Assembly (NCBI GenBank): GCA_043798915.1
Contig: JAZDOG010000097.1
Location: forward strand, 1-36,108
Source of the DNA: Pseudomonadota bacterium
GTDB taxonomy: Bacteria; UBA10199; 2-02-FULL-44-16; JAAZCA01
Length of the DNA stretch: 36,108 nucleotides
Direction of reading: 5' to 3'
Of this stretch, positions 1 to 36,108 are shown piece after piece. The stretch's first letter is position 1; every line of letters begins with the position of its first letter. The notes beneath the pieces were generated by a model. It ran no database searches. It was not told the DNA's origin and saw nothing but the letters and a program-made list of their open reading frames with translations. A program made the translations under genes and the position numbers.

Positions 1-501
1 ACCGTGGGCTATCTCTATTTCAGGATAGCCCTCCTGATCGCCGCCCTGATGGCCGGCATGGCGCTCGGCGTCCTGTATGGAAATGCGATGATAAAAAGGA
101 CGGCCGTCGGCGCGTTTTCCCTGCGCAGATGCCATCTGGTTTTGGTGGTGACCTGCGTCCTGTTGTCCCTCGTGTTTCTGCTCCTGCCCAAAATTTCCGC
201 GCCATGGTTATCGGAACCCCTCCTCATGCTCTGCGCGGTCGGTGCCGGTTTTGCCGGCGCTGCAGTCTTTCCGGTTTCAAACAGGATTTATTTTTCGTCC
301 CGTCCGGATTCGCAGAGGAGGACTGGCGTGATCTACAGCGCGGACCTCGCGGGCTCCTGTTTCGGCGCGCTGCTGCCCAGCGCGATCCTCATCCCGGTCT
401 TCGGGATATACAAGACGCTCATCTTCATCGCCCTGGCCAATCTCCTGATGCTGTCGCTCCCGATCGTCAGTCATAAAACTTTTTTCGTGACTCGTCGATA
501 A
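1..501 (+). CDS. C-terminal membrane part of a fused MFS/spermidine-synthase-like protein (5' partial)
   Basis: Open frame from the window edge with several TM helices. The motifs MAGMALG, GFAGAAVFP and IYSADLAGSCFGALL..ILIP are typical of the membrane domain of long spermidine-synthase-like proteins. Confidence 0.65.
   Translation, partial: TVGYLYFRIALLIAALMAGMALGVLYGNAMIKRTAVGAFSLRRCHLVLVVTCVLLSLVFLLLPKISAPWLSEPLLMLCAVGAGFAGAAVFPVSNRIYFSSRPDSQRRTGVIYSADLAGSCFGALLPSAILIPVFGIYKTLIFIALANLLMLSLPIVSHKTFFVTRR
474..501 (+). promoter_or_regulatory. sigma28/FliA-like promoter candidate (TAAAAC-N14-GTCGATAA)
   Basis: Same -35/-10 geometry as the three ACGCAAC-N14-KCCGATA motifs; ends 66 nt upstream of the ATG at 568. 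Confidence 0.45.
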
Positions 502-567
502 CTTGGACGTAAGAAGAAGACGAAGCACGGGGGAGCTTCCTTGGGGGAGTGTGTTGAGGAGGCCAAC

Positions 568-972
568 ATGTCCGCGTTCAATATCTGTTCCATGATGCCT
601 GAGGGATACAGGGATTTCGATTCCGCTCTTGCCGCCAAGATTGAGCTTGAAAGAAAAAGCAGAGAATCCGGCTCCAAGACCCAGAAGCTCTACCATGTGG
701 AGTTGGAATTCTGCGACGAGTTCCTGCCGCCGACAGGAGGCCCGATCCAGACGACAGTTCCAGTTTCACGGGATAGCGTCTTCGTCATTCGCGAAGGGAT
801 TGTCGATGGCTGCACCACCTATGCGGGATATTCCGGTCCCACCGCTGAGCTCGAGGCGAGGGACTGCGCCGCCTCGCTGGCCGCCCTGACAGGAACACCA
901 TTTTCCGCAATAAGGGCGGAGAAAAGGAGCCGGTTCGATAAAAGGTTTAAGGTAATTCCGGCAACAAAATAA
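568..972 (+). CDS. hypothetical protein (134 aa)
   Basis: ATG at 568 preceded by GAGGAGG (556-562); fills the gap between two clear genes; no recognisable domain. Confidence 0.65.
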   Translation: MSAFNICSMMPEGYRDFDSALAAKIELERKSRESGSKTQKLYHVELEFCDEFLPPTGGPIQTTVPVSRDSVFVIREGIVDGCTTYAGYSGPTAELEARDCAASLAALTGTPFSAIRAEKRSRFDKRFKVIPATK

Positions 973-1059
973 ATTCATCGCCCACCACAAAAATTCAAAA
1001 CCTTGCGAGGGGTTGCCCCGAAGCAGATGGGTTTTGAAACGAGTTACAGGAGACCGCCT

Positions 1060-26230: not shown

Positions 26231-26400
26231 CTGCTGTTGACGTGATGCTTTAACGCGAAGCAAAGCCCGAGGTCAATCCCTATTCGATTTGGCAAATTTG
26301 ATAAAAAGCTTAAATTACAACAGGTTATGAAATTATTGACGCAGTGCGCCGTGCGCCATGCCGCAGGGCGCCTGGTTTTCCGCTCCGAAGCCAATAATTT

Positions 26401-26429
26401 ACGCAACAATTTGCGCCGGCTGCCGATAC
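26401..26429 (+). promoter_or_regulatory. sigma28/FliA-like promoter motif ACGCAAC-N14-GCCGATAC
   Basis: One of three copies with identical spacing; ends 11 nt before ATG 26441. Confidence 0.65.
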
Positions 26430-26440
26430 GTAGACACAAG

Positions 26441-29400
26441 ATGAGATACCCCAATCACATGGCACTGTTTGCCGCCGCGGTCCTGCTTGCTTCCTGCAGC
26501 AACGGCGGCTCCGCGATGAAACCGGATTTCTCCGGCGCGCCGGACACTGCCTTCACCATCCACGACGAGAAGGATCTGATCGGCGGACCCATGGCGCAGG
26601 GCCGAACGGGCGACGTGCTGCTCAAGAACGACAGGATACGCGTCGTCATCCAGAAGCCGCGCAAGAACCCGGGCGTCAACTCCTTCGGCGGAAACATAAT
26701 CGACGCCGATCTTGTCCGCCCCGGCGGCGCGCCGGGCCAGGACAACTTCGGCACGCTCTTTCCGCTTGTAAACGTAGAGTGGACGGTCGACTACTACAAC
26801 TTCGAAGTCGTCTCCGATGGCTCCGGAGGCGGCCCCAAGGTGCTGCGCGCCTACGGCAAGATCGATGTCTACGACTATCTCGATCTGAGCTTTATCCAGA
26901 ACGTCTCGGAGGGACTCATCGGCCAGAAGCTCACCTATGCCAATCGCTTCGACGACCGGATGGATCCGTTCGACATCTACGGCGACTTGAAAGGGGTAAG
27001 CCCGGACGTCATCACCGATTACACGCTTGAACCTGGAAAAAATTACGTCCGCATCGACACGAAATTCACCAACTCCGGCGACACGGAGGTGAAGCTGCCG
27101 ATGGGCGAGTTCATCAACGGCTCGGGGCAGGGGTCGATGCTGATCCCGGGCCAGGGCTTCTCGCCCGACCTCATGGCGCAGGCGGGGAGCAACACGCCGG
27201 CGATCATCTACGCGGCGTTCGACGGAGTAGACGCATCGTACGGATACTTCTTCAAGGCTGGCCAGTTCATCGATCCCAAGAAGGGCGATCCATACACGAC
27301 GACCTCGATAACATATTCCGGCGTGACAGGGCTTCTGATGGGCGAGGAGTTTTTGAAGATCGCGCCGCTCGGGATGGGCGGGACGCCTGATATCCATTTC
27401 TCGATCCCGCCGGACAGCGAACGCACGATCACCGGATATTTTGTCGTCGGCAACGGCTCGGCCGGGTCGGTGCTGGATGCGGGGCTTTCGGCTATCGGCG
27501 CGGATGCGCGGCCGGTGAGCGGCGTCGTCAAGAGTTCAGACGGCAAACCGTTTGCAAACGCTATCGTTGCCATCCAGTCGAGGGGACAGACCCTCATCAC
27601 ATATCGCACCGACAGCCAGGGGCGCTTCACAGGGAATCTTCCGACCGGCGGCGATCCCGAGTCGAAGCGCTTCGGCAACGGACGTTACACGGTGGCGGTC
27701 GACGTGCCAGGCTATCAGCTGAACGGCACGTCCGGCGCAGGCAAGTGCGAGCCGGCTGAGATCGACGTCTTCACGCAGAAGTCAGCGACCGTCGAGTGCA
27801 CGCTCGGCGAGACGGGGAGGGTAGAGATCTCCGGGCCGGTCGTCGATGCGGCGACTGGAAAGGCCCTGCCCGCAAGGCTCACGATCATCGGTGAGGATCC
27901 GAGCCCCAACAAGGTCGGCAGCGCCGGCCGGTTCCGCTCCTCGATAGAGTGGGAGCAGCCCTTCGGGATCGCCGACGTGAAATACATCACCGCAAAGGGG
28001 ACGTTCGATCTCACGGGTGAGAAGAGCTTCAATATCGAGCCGGGGACGTATCGCTTCGTCATAAGCCACGGCCAGGAATATTCTTCCGACGAGAAGGTGA
28101 TCGAGGTGACAGCCGGCGGGATGCCTCTGCTGCTGAGCCTTGTGAAACTCTCCCGCGTCTCTCCCACGCCCGGCTACATAAGCGCGGATTTTCACATACA
28201 CTCGATCAGGAGCCCCGACTCGACGCTGCCGCAGGAGATGCGCGTGCTCTCAGCCGCTGCGGAGGGGCTCGATGTCCTGCAGGCCTCCGACCACGACTAC
28301 GTCACCGACTATGCGCCGGTGCTCGCCAGGCTTGTGGCGGATGGGCTTATCCCTGCCGGGAGCATGCAGACCTCCTCCGGCGAAGAGATTACGCCCAACC
28401 ACTACGGTCACCTCCACGTGTTTCCGGTGACTGCGAAGGCCGACGATCCGGACGGCGGCGCCATCGACTGGTCTGCCTCGCCCAGGAACGAGGTCTCGTT
28501 CGCGCCGCACTACGTCCTGACGCTCGACGAGTTGACTGACAAGATGCGCTCGGGTCCGGGCGATGAGGTCGTGCAGATAGATCACATCATGGACTCGCCG
28601 ACCGGGATCATCACCGCCTGCGGGTGGGTGACTTCGTCCTTCTATGCGAAGGACTTCGGCGTGCCGCCCCTCTCGAGCTATGCGGATCCGGTCGAGCGAA
28701 GGATGCCGCCGCGCAGCGACGGCGGGATATCGTTCCCGATTCCTCTGGGCGGCTCAGGGCTCGTGACGACCAACTTCGATTCGGTTGAACTCGTGGTGGG
28801 CCCGCATCTGCACGACAACAGCCTGCTGTTTCGCTCCGCGCTGCCTACGTGGTTCAATCTCTTGAACCTCGGCCTCATCGTCACCGCGACGGCGGATTCG
28901 GACAGCCACATGATCCGCCCGGAGCCGGTCGGCATGCCGCGCAACTACGTCCTTTCATCGGTCGACCCGAACGACGGGAAGGGCGCGAACCACTCCGCGA
29001 TCGATCTCCAGGAATATGCGGCCAACATCCGCGCTCACCGCCTGACGGTGTCGGCGGGCCCGATCGTTCTCGTGCACGCGAAATCCGATAGCGGATCTGC
29101 TGCGGAGATCGGCGGGACGGTCACGGGCAAACACGTGACGTTCACGGTGGACGTGAAGGCCCCGTCGTGGGGCTGGTTCGACACGATCGAGATATATGCG
29201 AACACGGAGCCGATGCCGGTGGACGACAAGACCGACACGCCGATGAAGGGGACGGCCGCAGACCCGGCGGAGTTCTACAAGCCGTATCACGTTCCCAGAT
29301 ACACCTATGAACCCGTGAAGAGCTTCAGGCTCGCCGACGGGACGCTTGAAAGCTGGAAAGAGGAGAAGGGCTCGATCACCGCGACGGTCGCGTTCGACAT

Positions 29401-29671
29401 GGACTTCGATGAGGATACCTGGGTTGTCGCGATGGTGAGAGGGACGCAGAGCACGAAGGGCTACCGATCGCTCTTTCCGCTCGTGACCCGCGCGCTGATC
29501 GACGACAAGGCCAGACCGGAATCGTTCGACCCGGCAAACCTCGCGGCGTTCAATGCTGACAAGAGGGTGGGGGCCCAGGGCTGGGCGCTGGCAAACCCGA
29601 TCTTCGTGGACGTTGACGGAGATGGCTTCAAGGCGAAGTATGTGCGATCGGGAGTCTCGCCGCTGAAGTGA
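26441..29671 (+). CDS. CehA/McbA-like PHP-domain metallohydrolase, lipoprotein
   Basis: Lipobox LLASC; N-terminal beta domain (LIGGPMAQGRTGDVLLKND, GGNIIDAD) and a carboxypeptidase-like domain. PHP motifs ADFHIHS, AEGLD..ASDHD, GEEITP..YGH, QIDH, ADSDSH; C-terminal ANPIFVDVDG. Confidence 0.85.
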   Translation: MRYPNHMALFAAAVLLASCSNGGSAMKPDFSGAPDTAFTIHDEKDLIGGPMAQGRTGDVLLKNDRIRVVIQKPRKNPGVNSFGGNIIDADLVRPGGAPGQDNFGTLFPLVNVEWTVDYYNFEVVSDGSGGGPKVLRAYGKIDVYDYLDLSFIQNVSEGLIGQKLTYANRFDDRMDPFDIYGDLKGVSPDVITDYTLEPGKNYVRIDTKFTNSGDTEVKLPMGEFINGSGQGSMLIPGQGFSPDLMAQAGSNTPAIIYAAFDGVDASYGYFFKAGQFIDPKKGDPYTTTSITYSGVTGLLMGEEFLKIAPLGMGGTPDIHFSIPPDSERTITGYFVVGNGSAGSVLDAGLSAIGADARPVSGVVKSSDGKPFANAIVAIQSRGQTLITYRTDSQGRFTGNLPTGGDPESKRFGNGRYTVAVDVPGYQLNGTSGAGKCEPAEIDVFTQKSATVECTLGETGRVEISGPVVDAATGKALPARLTIIGEDPSPNKVGSAGRFRSSIEWEQPFGIADVKYITAKGTFDLTGEKSFNIEPGTYRFVISHGQEYSSDEKVIEVTAGGMPLLLSLVKLSRVSPTPGYISADFHIHSIRSPDSTLPQEMRVLSAAAEGLDVLQASDHDYVTDYAPVLARLVADGLIPAGSMQTSSGEEITPNHYGHLHVFPVTAKADDPDGGAIDWSASPRNEVSFAPHYVLTLDELTDKMRSGPGDEVVQIDHIMDSPTGIITACGWVTSSFYAKDFGVPPLSSYADPVERRMPPRSDGGISFPIPLGGSGLVTTNFDSVELVVGPHLHDNSLLFRSALPTWFNLLNLGLIVTATADSDSHMIRPEPVGMPRNYVLSSVDPNDGKGANHSAIDLQEYAANIRAHRLTVSAGPIVLVHAKSDSGSAAEIGGTVTGKHVTFTVDVKAPSWGWFDTIEIYANTEPMPVDDKTDTPMKGTAADPAEFYKPYHVPRYTYEPVKSFRLADGTLESWKEEKGSITATVAFDMDFDEDTWVVAMVRGTQSTKGYRSLFPLVTRALIDDKARPESFDPANLAAFNADKRVGAQGWALANPIFVDVDGDGFKAKYVRSGVSPLK

Positions 29672-30246: not shown

Positions 30247-31668
30247 ATGCTTGCGGTCATGGGTATAGTTCCGATTCTTGTCTATGCGGCTTATGCCGCC
30301 GGAGCGGCCGTTTTCGCCGCAATCTTCGGAGCGGCCGCGCCTGCCTGCAACACGGACAACCCCAGCGACGACGGTGCCACCGACGCCGGGAAAAAAGACG
30401 GCCCGGACTTGGCTGGTGTCGACATGGCCTCGTCGACAGACGGACCGGACGGTGGTGTGCTGCCGGATATTAGAGATGGCAGGGTGGACGGCTATGTGCC
30501 GCCCATCGATGCCAGCCGGCCAAACGATTTGGTGCCGCAGGACGCCACAATGCGCAAGGGCGTCAATCTGGCCTTCGCGAGCATCACGTCAAACAAGGGA
30601 GCCTGCAAAATCATCGATATGAAAATATCGGCGGATAGCACGCTTTGGGCCCTGTGCGGAGGCATCAATCAATATGCCAAAATCAAATTGCCTCCCAACC
30701 CCGGCGATGCGCTCAAAGCGGCCAATAACATAGATGCCAGCAATAGCCCGGTGGTGCCAATGAGTCCCCAAGGCACGCCGGTGCAGATCATCTTTCCGCC
30801 CGCGCCGCTTGGATATGCGGCGATAGTCATGTACAATATTACAACTTCCGTAAGCTGGGGATCTATACAATCTGGCGGTATGGCGCTCATCGACCAAAGC
30901 GACAAGGCCGGCGAATTTCCCTTGAGTGTGCCGCTGGGGTCTCCGGCGTTGACGGATGTCAAATCGGCGCTGGCTTTTAATGACACGCAAAGAATGCTTT
31001 GGAAATATTTTGTCCCTGGCACTGCAAGCAATCCGAACGTCAAACCGGCGGGTTACCCCGGCATGATCGCCCAATACAAGGCGATGAACGGCATCCCGCA
31101 GCAAAATCCGCCCGGAATTCCAGTCTTCAGCAAAGGTTGGAGATCCGGAGCCATATCGATGCTGGACAATAATGCGAACACGGCCGCCGTGCTCAACTGT
31201 GAAACCGGAGCGAATGACAAAACCGCGAACATCGACGTGGTCGATTTGCCGAAAACTTATTTGGATACGGCCAACGCGGTGATTGCCAATGTGCCGCTTG
31301 GAACCACGGTGTTCTGCTCGAACACATTGCCGTTGATAAACGGATTTGCAGTCGTGGCGCCGGCGGCGGGCGGGCTCATGTTTGCGGAGGTGAAGGCAAA
31401 TGGGGCGAAGACACAAACCCAGCTGAATGGCGAACATGTAACGAGCGTGGATGTCCAAACGGCGACGGTTTATTCGGCCACAGCCGAGGGGAATCTTCAC
31501 ATATTTGATGCGCCGAATCTGCCGGCAAATCCGACAGAAGATCAATTCAGCCCCGTCGCTGGTCTGGGCCAAAATCCGGGTCCGGTGGTCGCTCATGCTG
31601 TCTCAGGCATAGTGTATATCGCATATGGAAACACAATCACCGCCGTCTATCCGTCCCAGGCGCACTAA
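30247..31668 (+). CDS. hypothetical secreted/lipoprotein, probable beta-propeller
   Basis: AGGAGG RBS; hydrophobic N-terminus ending AAPAC; Asp/Gly-rich linker (DGATDAG..DGPDGG); short beta-strand repeats. Confidence 0.75.
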   Translation: MLAVMGIVPILVYAAYAAGAAVFAAIFGAAAPACNTDNPSDDGATDAGKKDGPDLAGVDMASSTDGPDGGVLPDIRDGRVDGYVPPIDASRPNDLVPQDATMRKGVNLAFASITSNKGACKIIDMKISADSTLWALCGGINQYAKIKLPPNPGDALKAANNIDASNSPVVPMSPQGTPVQIIFPPAPLGYAAIVMYNITTSVSWGSIQSGGMALIDQSDKAGEFPLSVPLGSPALTDVKSALAFNDTQRMLWKYFVPGTASNPNVKPAGYPGMIAQYKAMNGIPQQNPPGIPVFSKGWRSGAISMLDNNANTAAVLNCETGANDKTANIDVVDLPKTYLDTANAVIANVPLGTTVFCSNTLPLINGFAVVAPAAGGLMFAEVKANGAKTQTQLNGEHVTSVDVQTATVYSATAEGNLHIFDAPNLPANPTEDQFSPVAGLGQNPGPVVAHAVSGIVYIAYGNTITAVYPSQAH

Positions 31669-31709
31669 TCAAAAAGCGACGGCGAAGGCAGCGTTGCTGC
31701 GTGGCGCAT

Positions 31710-31847
31710 TGCAATCTGGTGCCTGGCGCCAGACCCGCCATCCCCGACCTTTTTGCAATCGTCTCGATTGGCGCACTTGGCCTGATAGCGATCATGGCAA
31801 CCAGAAGAAGAACGCGGCAGCCGGATAAAAATTATACGCATTGCTAA
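31710..31847 (+). pseudogene. orphan C-terminal sorting-signal-like remnant (MYXO-CTERM-like)
   Basis: Frame from 31710 reads CNLVPGARPAIPDLFAIVSIGALGLIAIMATRRRTRQ..*: Cys, spacer, hydrophobic helix, Arg cluster. Not in frame with the upstream gene. Confidence 0.35.
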
Positions 31848-32028
31848 ATAACTATTATTTTCAATGGGTTACTGAGGACCGCCTCAGCCGCTGCAATTTT
31901 TTCTCCGCGACAGACGGTCGATCTTGACTCAGAGGTGGCTTCCTCATCCCAAGATGACATCAGCTGTTCAGAAATCCGAAATTCGGAACATCCCCTGTTC
32001 CGCTTTCTGAACTTTTTCCAAAGAAACC

Positions 32029-32057
32029 ACGCAACCTTTTTTAAGAGTATCCGATAA
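32029..32057 (+). promoter_or_regulatory. sigma28/FliA-like promoter motif ACGCAAC-N14-TCCGATAA
   Basis: Third copy, upstream of ATG 32151. Confidence 0.65.
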
Positions 32058-32084
32058 ATCAGATGGTTATAAAAGCAGTCCCCT

Positions 32085-32101
32085 TTGGCACGGGAATTGC
32101 T
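32085..32101 (+). promoter_or_regulatory. sigma54 (RpoN) -24/-12 promoter
   Basis: TTGGCACGggaaTTGCT matches TGGCACG-N4-TTGCW; GG 32087-88 and GC 32099-100 are separated by 10 nt; ends 49 nt upstream of ATG 32151. Confidence 0.75.
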
Positions 32102-32150
32102 GGGTAATACTGGTTCGAGCTTTGTTTCGGGGGAGAAAGGAATTTCAGAA

Positions 32151-34379
32151 ATGGCCATCCTTTTTCAAAAATGTGTTGTGAGGGAATCAAAAGGTGCGAA
32201 TCAAGGAACTTCTGCATGGGAAAATGCCAGACTGAGCTGCGCCGATCAGTTGATAAAATCCGCGGAAGAAGACATGCAGAGCGCTGAATATGCGCAATCC
32301 GAGATGCCGTGGTTCGTGCGCTGGTTCACCGGCAGCGCAAAAAAGCAATGGGTCCGGCAACAGGAAGAAGCGAGGGCGCATCTGGCGACGGCACGCCGAT
32401 ACGTTCAATTCAAGGATACGGAGAATGCCATAAGCGAAGTGAGAACGTCGATAAAGCTGTCGGTCAGGGCCGACGAGGCGTTGTTGGCGGAGGAAAATGG
32501 CGTCATCGGCAAGGAGACCACTTCAACGAAGGTTTTGGGAGCGACATCAGTGTTTCTGGCGGTGATTGGCACGGCCGGCGCAGCGTCAACATGGGCGGCT
32601 GGTGCGGCTGCTTTTGTGTGCGGCACTGAAACAACTGGAGGCATTCTTGCAGTTATGGGATTTTCGACCGCTGCTGGCGCTGGCGCCGGCTATACGACTG
32701 GTGCCGGGATGGCTGGATTGCGGTCGATTGTAAACGAGGAATCTTACCATTATCCGTCGGGTGAGAAGCTGCAATATACGTTTGCCGGTGCGACAACCGG
32801 TCTGCTGCAAGGAAGTTTCCCGTTTGCTATAAGGACTGGCATGGAGTGGGCCAGGCCCATCGAACCTGGAGCCGGCGCACAAGGCACGATTCAGGCAATT
32901 GGGAAACACGCAGTTGAGCTTACGCCCGCGGCTGTCACCCAAGGGATAATTTCGTCTGCGTACACAATGGTTTCGGGGGGCGATGGCGGGCAGATTGCTT
33001 CTTCCGCTGCGATCGGCATGGCCATTCCGTTTGCTTATTCAGGGTTATCAGTTGTGATGGGTTTGCCGGCGAACCTGAAAGTGCTGACATGGACAGACCC
33101 CGCCCAGCCCGGACAGATCGGCCGCGTGATATTCTATGACGGAATGACGAGGCCGTATCAGGTGTACAGTTACACCTTGCCTGATCAACCAGCACCAAAC
33201 GCGGTGGCGCCATTGTTGTTGGAGGCGGCACCTCCTGCAGCGACAGCGCTGGTACCACTCCGGTCAATATTGGGAGAATGGGGATATGATCCACTTTTCA
33301 AAGTACAGCCTAGAGGATGGGATATTCCAGCCGACTCTGCCAGAGCTATTGTCATCGCTTCAGCTGCGCGCAAACTGGTTGTTCCCGCTGTTATGCAAAA
33401 AACAATTTCTAATGCTGGATCTCCAAGTCTTGGCTTGCCAGGAGCCTGTGACGGGGATATGCACGGCAATATGAACAAGACCGAAGAATATGGATTAATT
33501 AATTTAGCTGCCATTGGCAATGGTGGTGGTGAGAGCGATCCGACTTTTGTCCAAACAGTCTCGATGAATACGCGGTACCACGCTGGTTTAAAAATATTCA
33601 AAAAACGCTGCACAGATTATGAAGCTATAGCAGGTTTTCTAAGACAGATTTTTGCAACTGACGTCGGTGGAATAAAGACGCGCTTTACTACGAAAAGTGA
33701 AGTGCGGGTCTGTGATATTGGATGCGGCGATGGTACTGTAACGGCAAAATTGGTTGAATATCTTCTCGATGTGGTTGATGGCGAAGTCATAGTGGATGTG
33801 ATAGAACCTGTTGAAGAATACAGATTATTGGCTACAGCGAAGCTTGTAGCGCTTGGTTCGGGAAGGCTAAAGGTCAATTTTGTGTCTATGGGAGCTGAAG
33901 AGTATTTTGCAAACGCGGAAATGATATACGACTTAGTTTTTTCATCACATAGTATCTATTTTTTTCCGCTTGAAACGATTCTGAACATTGCCCCAGCGAT
34001 AAATAGTGGTGGATTTTTTGTGGTCGTTGCAATGTCCAGCCAATCGATAATGGCTGAGCTCAAGGACATGTTCTCTCCAAAGCCGACAATTACAACAGAC
34101 GGAGTTTTGTCATTTATCCGGCAACGCAATACAAGGTTTCAACAATCAGCGACCTACCTTCCGTTTCCTAGCGTTTTAACGTTGAATGGAATCACCTTGC
34201 CAGAAAACAAACAGAATCTAACCGAGGAGGCAAAAAATCTCCTTTCTTTGATGATCCAACGAAACATCGATGAACTGGATGATGCCGACTACAAAAAAGT
34301 CAGGCAAGCAATAATTCGACGTAACTCGGGCGACCGGCTCGCGCTTGACAATGGAGGCCTGTTGTTCAAGCTGGAATGA
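32151..34379 (+). CDS. fusion protein: Gly/Ala-rich hydrophobic N-terminal region plus C-terminal class I SAM-dependent methyltransferase
   Basis: GGAG/AAGGA RBS before ATG 32151. Helical head, then Gly/Ala-rich hydrophobic segments and a Pro-rich linker. MTase motifs VCDIGCGDG, VDVIEP, YDLVFSSHSIYFF, INSGGFFVV. Confidence 0.78.
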   Translation: MAILFQKCVVRESKGANQGTSAWENARLSCADQLIKSAEEDMQSAEYAQSEMPWFVRWFTGSAKKQWVRQQEEARAHLATARRYVQFKDTENAISEVRTSIKLSVRADEALLAEENGVIGKETTSTKVLGATSVFLAVIGTAGAASTWAAGAAAFVCGTETTGGILAVMGFSTAAGAGAGYTTGAGMAGLRSIVNEESYHYPSGEKLQYTFAGATTGLLQGSFPFAIRTGMEWARPIEPGAGAQGTIQAIGKHAVELTPAAVTQGIISSAYTMVSGGDGGQIASSAAIGMAIPFAYSGLSVVMGLPANLKVLTWTDPAQPGQIGRVIFYDGMTRPYQVYSYTLPDQPAPNAVAPLLLEAAPPAATALVPLRSILGEWGYDPLFKVQPRGWDIPADSARAIVIASAARKLVVPAVMQKTISNAGSPSLGLPGACDGDMHGNMNKTEEYGLINLAAIGNGGGESDPTFVQTVSMNTRYHAGLKIFKKRCTDYEAIAGFLRQIFATDVGGIKTRFTTKSEVRVCDIGCGDGTVTAKLVEYLLDVVDGEVIVDVIEPVEEYRLLATAKLVALGSGRLKVNFVSMGAEEYFANAEMIYDLVFSSHSIYFFPLETILNIAPAINSGGFFVVVAMSSQSIMAELKDMFSPKPTITTDGVLSFIRQRNTRFQQSATYLPFPSVLTLNGITLPENKQNLTEEAKNLLSLMIQRNIDELDDADYKKVRQAIIRRNSGDRLALDNGGLLFKLE

Positions 34380-34412
34380 TGATGTAGTTGATATGAAGTT
34401 ACGAGGGTAATT

Positions 34413-34979
34413 ATGAGAGTGACCAAAAGGGATTTGATCATTTTTCTCATCATCTTCAGCATTGGTACCATTCTGGGTACAATCGGAACCGTGTCTTTTC
34501 CAATAGGCACTAATATGAGCTATTTTTGGCCAGCTGCCGTCGTTCAAACCGTGGGCGGCCTCTTTTTCGGTATCTGGGGTGTTTTAGCTGGTACTTTATT
34601 CCCAAGCTTGTCGAATGCACTGACAGATGGCTCGAAGTCGCATGTTATTTGGTTGATACCGGCAAATTTTATACAAAGCTTTATTCCGCTCTGTGTAAAA
34701 AAGGTGATTGGTTTCTCTCCACGATCACTCGATATGAAGTCTATTTTCGGGTTTATTGTCGGTTGTGCGATTTTACCTCATGTGTTTGGTGGTTTCGTAG
34801 GTTGTGGTGCTCTCTTCCTGTTAGGTGATATTCCAAATCAGGCTGAATTTTGGCGAACATTACGAGTGTGGCTCATAGGCAATATCCCATGCTCAATTGT
34901 ATTTGGATTGTTGTTGGTGAAAACAGTGGCTCCAATTCTCGAAGATTGTAATCTTTTGTATAAGAGTTTTTTAAAATGA
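34413..34979 (+). CDS. stand-alone MASE1-like integral membrane protein
   Basis: GAGG RBS; about 6 TM helices; YFWPAAVV..GGLFFGIWG near the N-terminus and VWLIGN near the C-terminus resemble MASE1 signatures. Confidence 0.6.
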   Translation: MRVTKRDLIIFLIIFSIGTILGTIGTVSFPIGTNMSYFWPAAVVQTVGGLFFGIWGVLAGTLFPSLSNALTDGSKSHVIWLIPANFIQSFIPLCVKKVIGFSPRSLDMKSIFGFIVGCAILPHVFGGFVGCGALFLLGDIPNQAEFWRTLRVWLIGNIPCSIVFGLLLVKTVAPILEDCNLLYKSFLK

Positions 34980-35067
34980 AATGCCTACTAGACGACACGC
35001 TTACAAGATTGTTTGAGATTTAACGGATTTAATTGCTTTTGAAACCGCCGCTTTTTTAATATTAATT

Positions 35068-36108
35068 ATGCAGCAACAAAGGCGATCAGTTTTTTTGAAG
35101 ATTTTTCTGCTGATGTTGATAAGCAGTGCTGGGCCCTGTTTGCTTATGGGTATTTACGAGCTTATCAGATTTCATAAGGTTATCTATGGCAAAGGGAATC
35201 CTCTGATGATGGCTATAGGTTGTAGTATCCTTCTGTCAGTTATTATGGCGGGGTTCATAACACAAGATATCGTATCTCCCATAAGGACACTCCTCCTTGC
35301 AATTAGGGAGTATACCACAAAGAAGGTCAATCCACGTATCAGCTTTGCTCAACGTAATGATGAGTTCGGATATTTATTTGAAGAGTACGAAAAAATGATC
35401 GCAGATATCTCGTCTTATCAATATAAAATTACACAAAGTGCCCGCCTTGCTGCTATCGGCCAATCAACCGCCATGGTCGCTCATGACGTTCGCAAGCCGC
35501 TGGCGAGCATGAAGGCACTGCTCACTTCATTGCCATCGATTCAGGACGATCCGGAGCAGGTCAAGAGGATGATAACTGCTGTGGATCGCAATATTTCCCA
35601 GACGAACATGATGCTCAACGATATATTGGAGTTTTCGAAAGACTCCACGTCTCTCAATATCGAGGATGCAAGTCCCCAAAGTGTCATCACCTCCGCACTA
35701 GCCGACGCTCTTCGGAACCATGAGGGATCGAGCGTGACGATAGATTATAATTTGACACATAAGCGCAGCTTGCGCGTGGATGCGCCGCGGATCAGCCGGG
35801 TTCTCACAAACCTTATCGACAACGCGCTGGATGCCATGACGCCCCGCGGCGGCACGGCAGCCGGTTCTCTCGAAGTCGACACAGTTGAGTGTTTAAACGA
35901 CGGCAAGAAGACGCTGATCATTAAGGTCACCGACAGCGGCCCGGGGATTCCTGAAGACCTGCTGCCTAAAATATTCGATCCATTCTTTTCACACGGGAAA
36001 CAAGGTGGCAGCGGGCTTGGGCTGGCCATCAGCCAAAGGATCATCAGTTTGCACGGTGGAACAATCAGGGCGAAGAACAGGAAAGGCAAAAGCGGCGCTG
36101 AATTCATG
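35068..36108 (+). CDS. HAMP-domain sensor histidine kinase (3' partial; not in ORF track)
   Basis: Hand translation from ATG 35068 stays open to the window end. Two TM helices with a short loop, HAMP (IVSPIRTL...RNDEFGYL), H-box MVAHDVRKPL, N-box VLTNLIDNALDAM, G1 VTDSGPGI, F IFDPFFS, G2 GSGLGLAIS. Confidence 0.93.
   Translation, partial: MQQQRRSVFLKIFLLMLISSAGPCLLMGIYELIRFHKVIYGKGNPLMMAIGCSILLSVIMAGFITQDIVSPIRTLLLAIREYTTKKVNPRISFAQRNDEFGYLFEEYEKMIADISSYQYKITQSARLAAIGQSTAMVAHDVRKPLASMKALLTSLPSIQDDPEQVKRMITAVDRNISQTNMMLNDILEFSKDSTSLNIEDASPQSVITSALADALRNHEGSSVTIDYNLTHKRSLRVDAPRISRVLTNLIDNALDAMTPRGGTAAGSLEVDTVECLNDGKKTLIIKVTDSGPGIPEDLLPKIFDPFFSHGKQGGSGLGLAISQRIISLHGGTIRAKNRKGKSGAEFM

Follow-up and report, generated by a model that had tools for sequence, protein, structure and literature searches.

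The S-component fold of transporters of the energy-coupling factor (ECF) type is a high-affinity binder of small ligands. Other described systems join a histidine kinase to neighbouring genes: the intramembrane-sensing kinases BceS and LiaS work with the accessory membrane proteins BceAB and LiaF, and the agrBDCA and comQXPA loci are specificity cassettes with a boundary inside the kinase. The joint between HAMP and the dimerization and histidine phosphotransfer (DHp) domain is also where engineers build chimeric kinases. Partipilo and Slotboom (2024; PMC11109136) describe the S-component fold as the membrane sensor of 5TMR-LYT kinases of the LytS/BtsS type. They also report that an AxxxA motif in helix 1 of S-components docks EcfT, that these positions hold bulky residues in the fused 5TMR-LYT sensors, in which the motif is lost, and that some S-components, such as BioY and BtuM, are solitary and transport with no ECF module. 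Here we analysed a contig of a Pseudomonadota bacterium (JAZDOG010000097.1 of assembly GCA_043798915.1; the whole stretch of 36,108 bp is referred to as the window), in which an AT-rich block encodes a methyltransferase domain, a 188-amino acid (aa) membrane protein and the head of a histidine kinase. The locus combines known kinds, namely domain-shuffled two-component sensors, S-component-fold receptors and accessory-protein kinases. We consider it very probable that the block is a portable module and that the kinase is chimeric; the fuller explanation, a three-gene sensing module that entered by recombination and in which receptor, kinase and enzyme are coupled, is the one that we favour overall, with somewhat less assurance.

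The window is one whole contig (C45) of the source genome (G000), a metagenome-assembled genome whose 105 contigs total 2.34 Mb, with a GC content of 0.577 (97% complete, 3.3% contamination). Of the 41 genomes searched, no other belongs to its genus (g1), and the comparison includes no conspecific alleles. In 200-nt windows, the GC content was 0.545-0.57 over positions 33100-33399, 0.40-0.475 over 33300-35499 and 0.51-0.575 from 35400 on. The block of about 2.2 kb at 33228-35466 has a GC content of 0.425, compared with 0.549 in the left flank (30247-33227), 0.537 in the right flank (35467-36108) and 0.596 in the rest of the window (1-29671). GC content at third codon positions (GC3), which is about 0.8 in typical genes of the window, located both edges within genes. 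In the gene at 32151-34379 the best changepoint was codon 359 (nt 33228), with GC3 of 0.58 upstream and 0.40 downstream. In the kinase gene at 35068-36108 it was codon 133 (nt 35467), six codons 5' of the phospho-accepting His, with 0.41 upstream and 0.65 downstream. None of 5000 codon permutations attained the observed likelihood ratio at either changepoint, and both reading frames are intact across the edges, confirming that the AT-rich block between nt 33228 and 35466 is a real compositional feature. An earlier sequence-only reading of the window had claimed such a drop in composition, with intact frames, and was right in both respects, and the discrete GC3 breakpoints whose absence it had named as a refutation are present; it had placed the right edge (35445) within about 20 nt of the changepoint, but the left edge (33300) about 70 nt too far to the right.

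The three parts of the block were also found together elsewhere. An alignment search with the membrane protein gave L009 and L010, which are metagenome contigs, and L012, which is the same locus as L021 on a contig of genome G085 (L011 is identical in sequence); a methyltransferase profile searched against the phylum's 93 species genomes gave L022 in genome G084. Together with the window, these make five distinct loci, which are all the loci where the neighbourhood of the membrane protein was readable. In all five, the order is methyltransferase, membrane protein and kinase on one strand. The gene for the membrane protein overlaps that for the kinase by 1-17 nt in four loci, the two being 88 nt apart in the window, and the methyltransferase gene stands alone in L009, L012 and L022. 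Across the trio loci the membrane protein is 48-69% identical and the kinase head 41-64% identical. No ORF of at least 60 aa was found on the plus strand besides the three genes without overlapping them. In the source genome there is no paralogue of the methyltransferase, of the membrane protein, of the kinase head or of the N-terminal domain to which the methyltransferase is fused in the window, and a DNA search of 40 relatives gave no collinear locus. The trio was not found described in literature searches on S-component/kinase co-sensing, on operons of histamine N-methyltransferase (HNMT) homologs with kinases and on solitary S-components with two-component systems, of which PMC11109136 was the sole relevant paper. 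Comparison of these sequences supports the interpretation of the AT-rich block as a rare, conserved and putatively sensory module of three parts. The sequence-only reading had named recurrence of the trio in unrelated genomes as support; the trio does recur, at four other distinct loci, but G084 and G085 belong to the same class as the source genome. About 1 kb upstream of the trio in L012, the G085 contig also encodes (323-1054, plus strand) a 243-aa soluble HisKA/HATPase_c fragment with no sensor or receiver.

The right edge of the block divides the kinase into two parts. The head (35068-35466, plus strand), which is the last part of the AT-rich block, contains a transmembrane helix, a conserved loop of about 15 residues, a second transmembrane helix and a linker, which we take to be HAMP-like from its position and from a Pro...DEFG pattern seen in such linkers. 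The transmitter (35467-36108, plus strand) contains the DHp domain with His139 and a catalytic and ATP-binding (CA) domain, and it is cut by the contig end, which lies 640 nt from the block; the rest of the truncated gene was not located on other contigs of the source genome among hits of at least 60 bits. Pfam detected HisKA (E 2.2e-9) and HATPase_c (E 1.8e-24), and His139 is invariant. The NCBIfam kinase models CpxA, BaeS and CreC align from residue 46-49 on, across the linker. A Response_reg domain is present in the kinases of L009 and L010 and was not detected (Pfam, E up to 0.01) in the open-ended kinase of L012. The outer loop is among the most conserved stretches of the head, with Y30, E31, L32, R34, K37, V38, Y40, G41, N44, P45, L46 and M47 invariant. 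A search with the head alone recovered only itself and the L010-type kinase.

Comparison of heads and cores gave discordant identities. Heads are 63-64% identical among the window, L009 and L010, and 41-52% identical to those of L012 and L022; they co-diverge with the membrane protein, and the cores do not. Between the window and L009, identity is 49% in the methyltransferase, 66% in the membrane protein, 64% in the head and 54% in the core; between the window and L010, the first three values are almost the same (49%, 69% and 64%) and the core falls to 33%. L012 and L022 share 45%, 59%, 51% and 51%, respectively. Between the three groups (the window with L009; L010; L012 with L022) the cores are 25-33% identical, the window core being 30-33% identical to those of L010, L012 and L022, and the window core shows 26-30% identity to paralogues of its own genome, which is no lower than between the trio cores of different groups. 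In the search of the phylum, the window core was 55-59% identical to kinases of G001, G055, G056 and G057, four genomes without the methyltransferase family.

The site of the crossover was visible in sliding windows of 20 residues. The window and L010 share 45-85% identity in residues 1-120; of the 19 windows that begin with 141-160, 17 do not exceed 30%. Against the kinases of G001, G055 and G057, identity is at most 40% up to residue 120, with head windows up to 101-120 given as no more than 35%, then 60-85% in the windows from 121-140 to 141-160 and mostly 35-80% further on. The crossover is therefore placed at residues of about 118-135 (nt about 35420-35470), which is the site of the GC3 changepoint at nt 35467, and a blastn match to the G001 kinase (nt 35420-35637 of the window) starts at the crossover. 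A maximum likelihood tree of 16 cores put the trio kinases in three places: L012 and L022 grouped together (support 100/100), L010 grouped with a kinase of G010 outside any trio (92/94), and the window and L009 fell inside a clade of non-trio kinases (99/100). These comparisons show the kinase to be an apparent protein-level chimera, in which a trio-type head and a core of the resident family are joined at the HAMP/DHp boundary, and show trio heads joined, as judged from the tree, to at least three unrelated transmitter lineages. The earlier suggestion of an exchangeable sensor module is supported by the recurrence of the trio, by the discordant identities of head and core and by the three transmitter lineages, and relatives with the same AHDVRKP kinase core but different upstream parts, which it had named as support, were found in G001, G055 and G057, whose AHDVRKP-type cores follow quite different heads, with solute-binding partners confirmed for two of them.

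The core-family kinases of these relatives have long N-terminal heads (864 aa in G001, 809 aa in G057 and at least 752 aa in G055), and those of G001 and G057 carry two receiver (REC) domains each. In G001 and G057, which are the loci checked, the adjacent upstream gene encodes a solute-binding protein (SBP_bac_1 and Peripla_BP_6, respectively). The two loci (L036, G001:C18, 8531-12404; L028, G057:C41, 14-3219) thus contain hybrid kinases behind different solute-binding-protein genes, which suggests that partner-dependent sensing in this bacterial class uses the transmitter as a general platform. The G001 and G057 kinases share with the window the DHp/CA core and a ligand-partner gene just upstream. 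They differ in having periplasmic partners and a large periplasmic head, whereas the window has an integral-membrane partner, a short-loop head and the methyltransferase in addition.

The 188-aa membrane protein (34413-34979, plus strand) stands alone in the block and is the proposed ligand-binding co-receptor of the kinase. Six homologs have 53-69% identity, and three more (P0005-P0007) lie on contigs of 1.2-1.9 kb. No Pfam family was assigned to the protein, which had no ECF_trnsprt (PF12822) or MASE1 hit. Among seven family members, PF12822 appeared weakly in three (best E 0.0068) and PF07155 in one (E 2.9), neither reaching the curated cut-off. In the window's protein the only signal related to MASE1 was a faint match of the NCBIfam model of the EspC N-terminal region over residues 24-167 (E 1.1e-4, 20.5 bits with a cut-off of 1200). 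The fold was more informative. A predicted structure (mean predicted local distance difference test, pLDDT, 80.9) was compared by VIA-align with 48,161 PDB chain representatives: ranks 1-15 were all ECF S-components (Z 9.9-16.8, with 152-173 residues aligned at an rmsd of 2.6-4.2), and the next entry was MreD (Z 8.1). Foldseek gave TM-scores of 0.59-0.70 to RibU, FolT and 4huq_S. The model is consistent throughout its length with the six-helix fold of ECF S-components. The sequence-only reading had called the protein MASE1-like; this identity is rejected, MASE1 (PF05231) being found in one of the seven members at E 0.65 and the fold being that of an S-component.

In comparison with ECF S-components such as RibU, FolT, ThiT and BioY, including the solitary BioY and BtuM, the 188-aa protein agrees in its predicted six-helix fold, in size and in the full-length structural match. 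It differs in failing to attain sequence membership of Pfam ECF_trnsprt, and in being encoded with the kinase head and the HNMT-like methyltransferase in every locus with readable context. EcfT is also missing from two of the three trio genomes searched: EcfT/CbiQ (PF02361) was not found in the source genome or in G084, which are incomplete genomes (97% and 94% complete). Helix 1 contains the invariant residues G18, G22 and G25 (GxxxGxxG), a small-xxx-small pattern that differs from the published AxxxA motif for EcfT docking.

The methyltransferase domain (33552-34379, plus strand; family match 33552-34370) is of the HNMT-like, class I, S-adenosylmethionine (SAM)-dependent type. Pfam sees the domain weakly, and its family is small: an exhaustive search of 1.84 billion representatives gave 14 proteins with E of at most 1e-30, including that of the window, with matches covering query residues of about 476-762. 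The other 13 consist of 11 proteins of 279-391 aa, one 941-aa fusion and one 171-aa fragment. A profile of 16 family members matched human histamine N-methyltransferase in the PDB (1jqe, E 2.3e-12, chain residues 14-214). The AlphaFold2 model of the domain (pLDDT 89.8) matched 1jqd in Foldseek (E 5e-18, TM-score 0.74-0.78), other methyltransferase families reaching at most 0.61. The invariant residues are D76, G78, G82 and E106-P107. The modelled structure thus agrees with an HNMT-type fold, down to the domain on the substrate side and SAM-binding motif I, and the SAM methyltransferase named in the sequence-only reading is supported by both fold and profile. The likeness to HNMT (1jqd/1jqe) extends over the whole-chain fold and, at the profile level, over the substrate-side segment at the N-terminus, over motif I and over the acidic residue that follows strand 2; the differences are that identity is just 13-14%, that the protein is here a member of a bacterial operon, and that the family of the window has an extra variable leader and is sometimes fused to membrane domains. 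The family defined here is rare and uncharacterised, and its genomic context points to a small-molecule signal. A distant member in G036 (L023, G036:C26, 6753-13014, minus strand; E 4.5e-77 to the profile) is encoded directly 3' of genes for sucrose synthase, sucrose-phosphate synthase/phosphatase and a PfkB kinase and shares their strand, a context that may hint at a role in small-solute chemistry.

At the left edge the methyltransferase is fused to an N-terminal domain (32151-33227, plus strand), which lies outside the AT-rich block and contains a coiled coil and Gly/Ala-rich hydrophobic segments. Between the two lies a stretch (33228-33551, plus strand) that holds the left junction and the variable leader or linker of the methyltransferase itself; it is AT-rich and in frame with the upstream domain, and the modelled part of the leader (33489-33554) has a pLDDT below 50. 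The fused gene encodes 764 aa when counted from the TTG at 32085 and 742 aa from the ATG at 32151, the latter agreeing with the homology start relative to P0027. The N-terminal domain is homologous to the N-termini of P0023 (634 aa; residues 52-314 of the query) and P0027 (1467 aa; residues 27-395, numbered from TTG 32085) and to a 640-aa frame in G067 and a 533-aa frame in G046, and the C-terminal parts of these relatives are all unrelated. The domain is covered by no Pfam or NCBIfam family, a language-model search gave leads that were all below the tool's bar of 0.9 (DUF637, 0.87; PT-TG, 0.84), and a search with the 764-aa full-length ORF recovered only itself among proteins of near length. 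Alignment A4 sets the first residues of the L009 methyltransferase, a stand-alone protein, against roughly the 27 residues that open the row starting at nt 33225. Because the L009 start aligns at the GC3 changepoint, the block starts where a complete methyltransferase ORF starts. The alignment thus indicates that the left edge is a complete methyltransferase ORF apparently fused in frame to an unrelated upstream N-terminal domain, and not a swap inside a gene. Of the in-frame swap across two genes proposed earlier, the position of both edges inside genes and the crossover within the kinase stand. P0013, the 941-aa protein, is another case of an N-terminal membrane region fused to the methyltransferase, and in L010 the methyltransferase frame runs open to the 5' end of the contig; both points speak for a functional fusion. 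We note that the C-terminal region of P0027 is long and contains several helix-turn-helix repeats (HTH_23, Xre-like and HTH_3), which is an odd combination with an N-terminus of hydrophobic Gly/Ala-rich segments.

We propose the following course of events and mechanism. The block would have entered, or last been replaced, by recombination, with its right end anchored in the conserved DHp/H-box DNA of the resident kinase and its left end joined illegitimately, the fusion of the methyltransferase ORF to the membrane-associated N-terminal domain being a chance in-frame event. The S-component-fold protein would bind a small extracytoplasmic ligand, as S-components do, and the state of the ligand would be relayed within the membrane to the short-loop kinase head, as in intramembrane-sensing kinases with accessory membrane proteins, and from there through the HAMP-like linker. 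Such a system would correspond to the S-component-fold sensor that is fused to kinases of the LytS/BtsS type, but split into separate proteins. The methyltransferase may modify the same compound in the cytoplasm, thereby trapping, inactivating or resetting it. Contact in the membrane between the 188-aa protein and the head is suggested by the conserved loop, by the GxxxGxxG of helix 1 and by the lack of a detected ECF module in two of the three trio genomes. Co-folding of residues 1-130 of the kinase (an alignment of 4 rows) and the 188-aa protein (7 rows), run without controls, scored 0.16, with the mark at 0.32, which speaks neither for nor against contact. We put the chances that the S-component protein is a co-receptor of the kinase at about even, and we propose only tentatively that the methyltransferase acts on the sensed ligand. 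A more specific scheme, which we offer as a speculation, is a split "transceptor": an S-component freed from the ECF ATPase would be the ligand subunit of a two-helix kinase, the methyltransferase would act on the same ligand at the membrane face, and the unit would be exchanged by one-sided homologous recombination at H-box DNA. Action at the membrane face would explain the occasional tethering of the methyltransferase to membrane domains, and recombination anchored on one side in H-box DNA would explain the same-codon compositional step in two anciently diverged loci.

Several observations weigh against the proposal that a coupled module was transferred. Low-GC patches are common in the source genome, where 113 of 4532 1-kb windows are below 0.45, and among 1501 ORFs compared genome-wide for internal GC3 shifts the two genes come only 92nd and 120th, although this control is crude and weak, being based on greedy longest ORFs, some of them spurious; the GC3 step taken alone is not extraordinary. 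Three related kinases without the cassette also have a mild head-below-core GC3 difference (0.07-0.12) with no sharp step. The left joint is seen on one contig only, no flanking repeats were found at the block edges and no mobility genes mark the block, and there is no synteny with the kinase loci of the relatives, tblastn of the window's neighbouring genes having found the kinase only. Pfam HAMP (PF00672) did not match the kinase linker at E up to 0.1; of the head with transmembrane helices, HAMP and almost no outer loop that the sequence-only reading had described, the two helices and the short loop are upheld and the HAMP assignment lacks a Pfam match. The methyltransferase family also occurs without the membrane protein and kinase, in G014, where it adjoins a convergent Cache/HAMP/PAS protein, and in G036. 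In the trio-bearing genome G085 a different contig encodes a homolog of EcfT/CbiQ, which makes an ordinary transport function of the 188-aa protein conceivable. Kinase contact, ligand binding and the substrate of methylation stand as predictions, and the earlier idea of a methylated small molecule that is made or inactivated and then sensed stands as a suggestion.

The compositional points bear first on an old, vertically inherited product of domain shuffling, in which low GC3 is kept by selection or by a local bias such as low expression and no recent swap took place. Apart from the mild gradient in the non-cassette kinases and the missing mobility genes and repeats, such an origin would fit the GC content of the cassette, which is 0.35-0.45 in all five loci, and the junction shared by the window and L009. 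At L009 GC3 rises from about 0.33 to 0.65, the rise is weaker in L022, and there is none in L010 and L012. The four-fold sites of the window and L009 are saturated in both cassette and core (identity 0.23-0.31 observed, 0.26-0.27 expected), and an approximately unbiased (AU) test does not reject a single origin of the two (p 0.087). We nevertheless regard this explanation as unlikely, if by no means negligible. The steps in the window and L009 are sharp, 2-3 times the gradient of the control kinases, and the left edge steps as well, exactly at the start of the relatives' methyltransferase ORF. The methyltransferase is soluble, so that codon bias of membrane proteins cannot account for its low GC3, and the absence of a step in L010 and L012 implies that low GC3 in the head is not intrinsic to the gene. 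Since the synonymous sites are saturated, a single transfer before the split of the window and L009 cannot explain the lasting contrast; either a later, independent replacement of the cassette in each lineage or AT-richness maintained by selection remains. A quite different source of the steps would be the assembly, if DNA of an AT-rich and a GC-rich organism had been joined through conserved kinase sequence. The number of contigs, the contamination, the position of the block near the contig end and a right junction in the most conserved kinase DNA are compatible with it. An artefact is highly improbable, however, in that the independent contig L009, with 49-66% protein identity, has the same junction and GC3 step, two in-frame joints would be required and there is no repeat at the left joint.

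Two further explanations concern the coupling of the genes. The three could merely be co-located, the membrane protein being a solitary S-component that transports a vitamin-like compound, the methyltransferase its metabolic partner and the kinase a neighbour or a regulator of the operon without contact. The S-component fold, with Z up to 16.8, the EcfT/CbiQ homolog in G085 and the solitary transporting S-components described in PMC11109136 all accord with this. We think it rather unlikely, as the head co-diverges with the membrane protein (41-64% and 48-69%, respectively) and the cores do not, the genes of membrane protein and kinase overlap in four of the five loci, a change of transmitter leaves the head together with the two genes upstream, and the head has no sizeable extracytoplasmic domain yet keeps a highly conserved 15-residue loop. 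Alternatively, the 742-aa protein could be a polymorphic effector, with an N-terminal domain for anchoring or delivery and an exchangeable enzymatic cargo, protected by the membrane protein as its cognate partner; the block would then be a replaced C-terminal cassette like those of polymorphic toxin loci. The relatives of the N-terminal domain (533, 634/640 and 1467 aa) do have unrelated C-termini, the GC3 step lies at the domain boundary, P0013 has a similar architecture, and the pre-toxin leads DUF637 and PT-TG, weak and both below the bar, would fit. Against this, and against any functional fusion, 11 of the 13 other strong members of the methyltransferase family are of stand-alone size; moreover, the same cassette has a stand-alone methyltransferase in L009, L012 and L022, the kinase head always accompanies the cassette, the nearest fold is a small-molecule methyltransferase and no secretion-system genes were seen in the ORF list of the window, which makes an effector improbable.

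If the preferred explanation of a coupled, transferred module is correct, the locus can be placed among the systems described at the outset. With agrBDCA and comQXPA it shares a recombination boundary between the sensor and the transmitter of the kinase and the joint movement of the sensor and the upstream genes. It differs in having no peptide precursor or processing enzyme among ORFs of at least 60 aa, and its cassette is conserved across loci, not hypervariable. The analogy drawn with these loci in the sequence-only reading accordingly holds for the position of the junction, but not for a hypervariable cassette, a signal-peptide gene or a set of conspecific alleles. BceS-BceAB and LiaS-LiaF resemble it in the two transmembrane helices, the very short outer loop and the obligatory neighbouring membrane-protein gene; the partner is here an S-component-fold protein, with predicted contact, and not an ABC transporter or LiaF. 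The 5TMR-LYT kinases (LytS, BtsS, YpdA and KinB) likewise combine an S-component-fold module, as the presumed ligand sensor, with a histidine kinase, and hybrid kinases with REC domains occur in both. In those kinases, however, the fold is fused to the kinase behind an extra helix H0, whereas here a separate 188-aa protein accompanies a kinase with two transmembrane helices and a HAMP-like linker, and none of the seven family members of the window matches Pfam PF07694 at E up to 10. The 188-aa family also keeps the small-xxx-small residues of helix 1, a pattern that PMC11109136 reports as lost in the fused sensors. The locus would extend the link between S-components and receptors, which PMC11109136 describes for fused 5TMR-LYT kinases, to a split, two-gene form, which could be an evolutionary intermediate. 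It would also be a natural, sequence-resolved case of input rewiring, in which a ligand-binding protein, an enzyme and a kinase head move as a unit onto different transmitters.

Promoter-like and terminator-like sites were not above the shuffled expectation, and a search of sequencing runs found no RNA run with the sequence. Two DNA runs of one study contain small shares of it (0.11 and 0.08) and yielded just six contig pieces of 151-260 letters, which bridge neither junction. Many low-GC 1-kb windows of the source genome lie at contig ends, as the block does (for example C9:1-2000, C10:1-2000, C42:1-2000, C47:27001-30000 and C57:70001-72000), and AT-rich islands may be where its assembly tends to break. 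Upstream of the fused gene, a 473-aa ORF (30247-31668, plus strand; GC3 0.64) has a hydrophobic segment at its N-terminus and matches no family of Pfam or NCBIfam; this ORF and the gene of the N-terminal domain make up a zone (29.7-33.2 kb) whose composition is intermediate and which separates the AT-rich block from the GC-rich core genes. Before this zone, a 1114-aa protein (26327-29671, plus strand) carries a metallohydrolase domain of the CehA/McbA family (PHP-type; above the NCBIfam cut-off, E 9.9e-25), a CarboxypepD_reg-like domain and, as judged by eye, a putative N-terminal secretion signal. With a GC3 of 0.81 its gene is typical of the genome, which the genes downstream are not.

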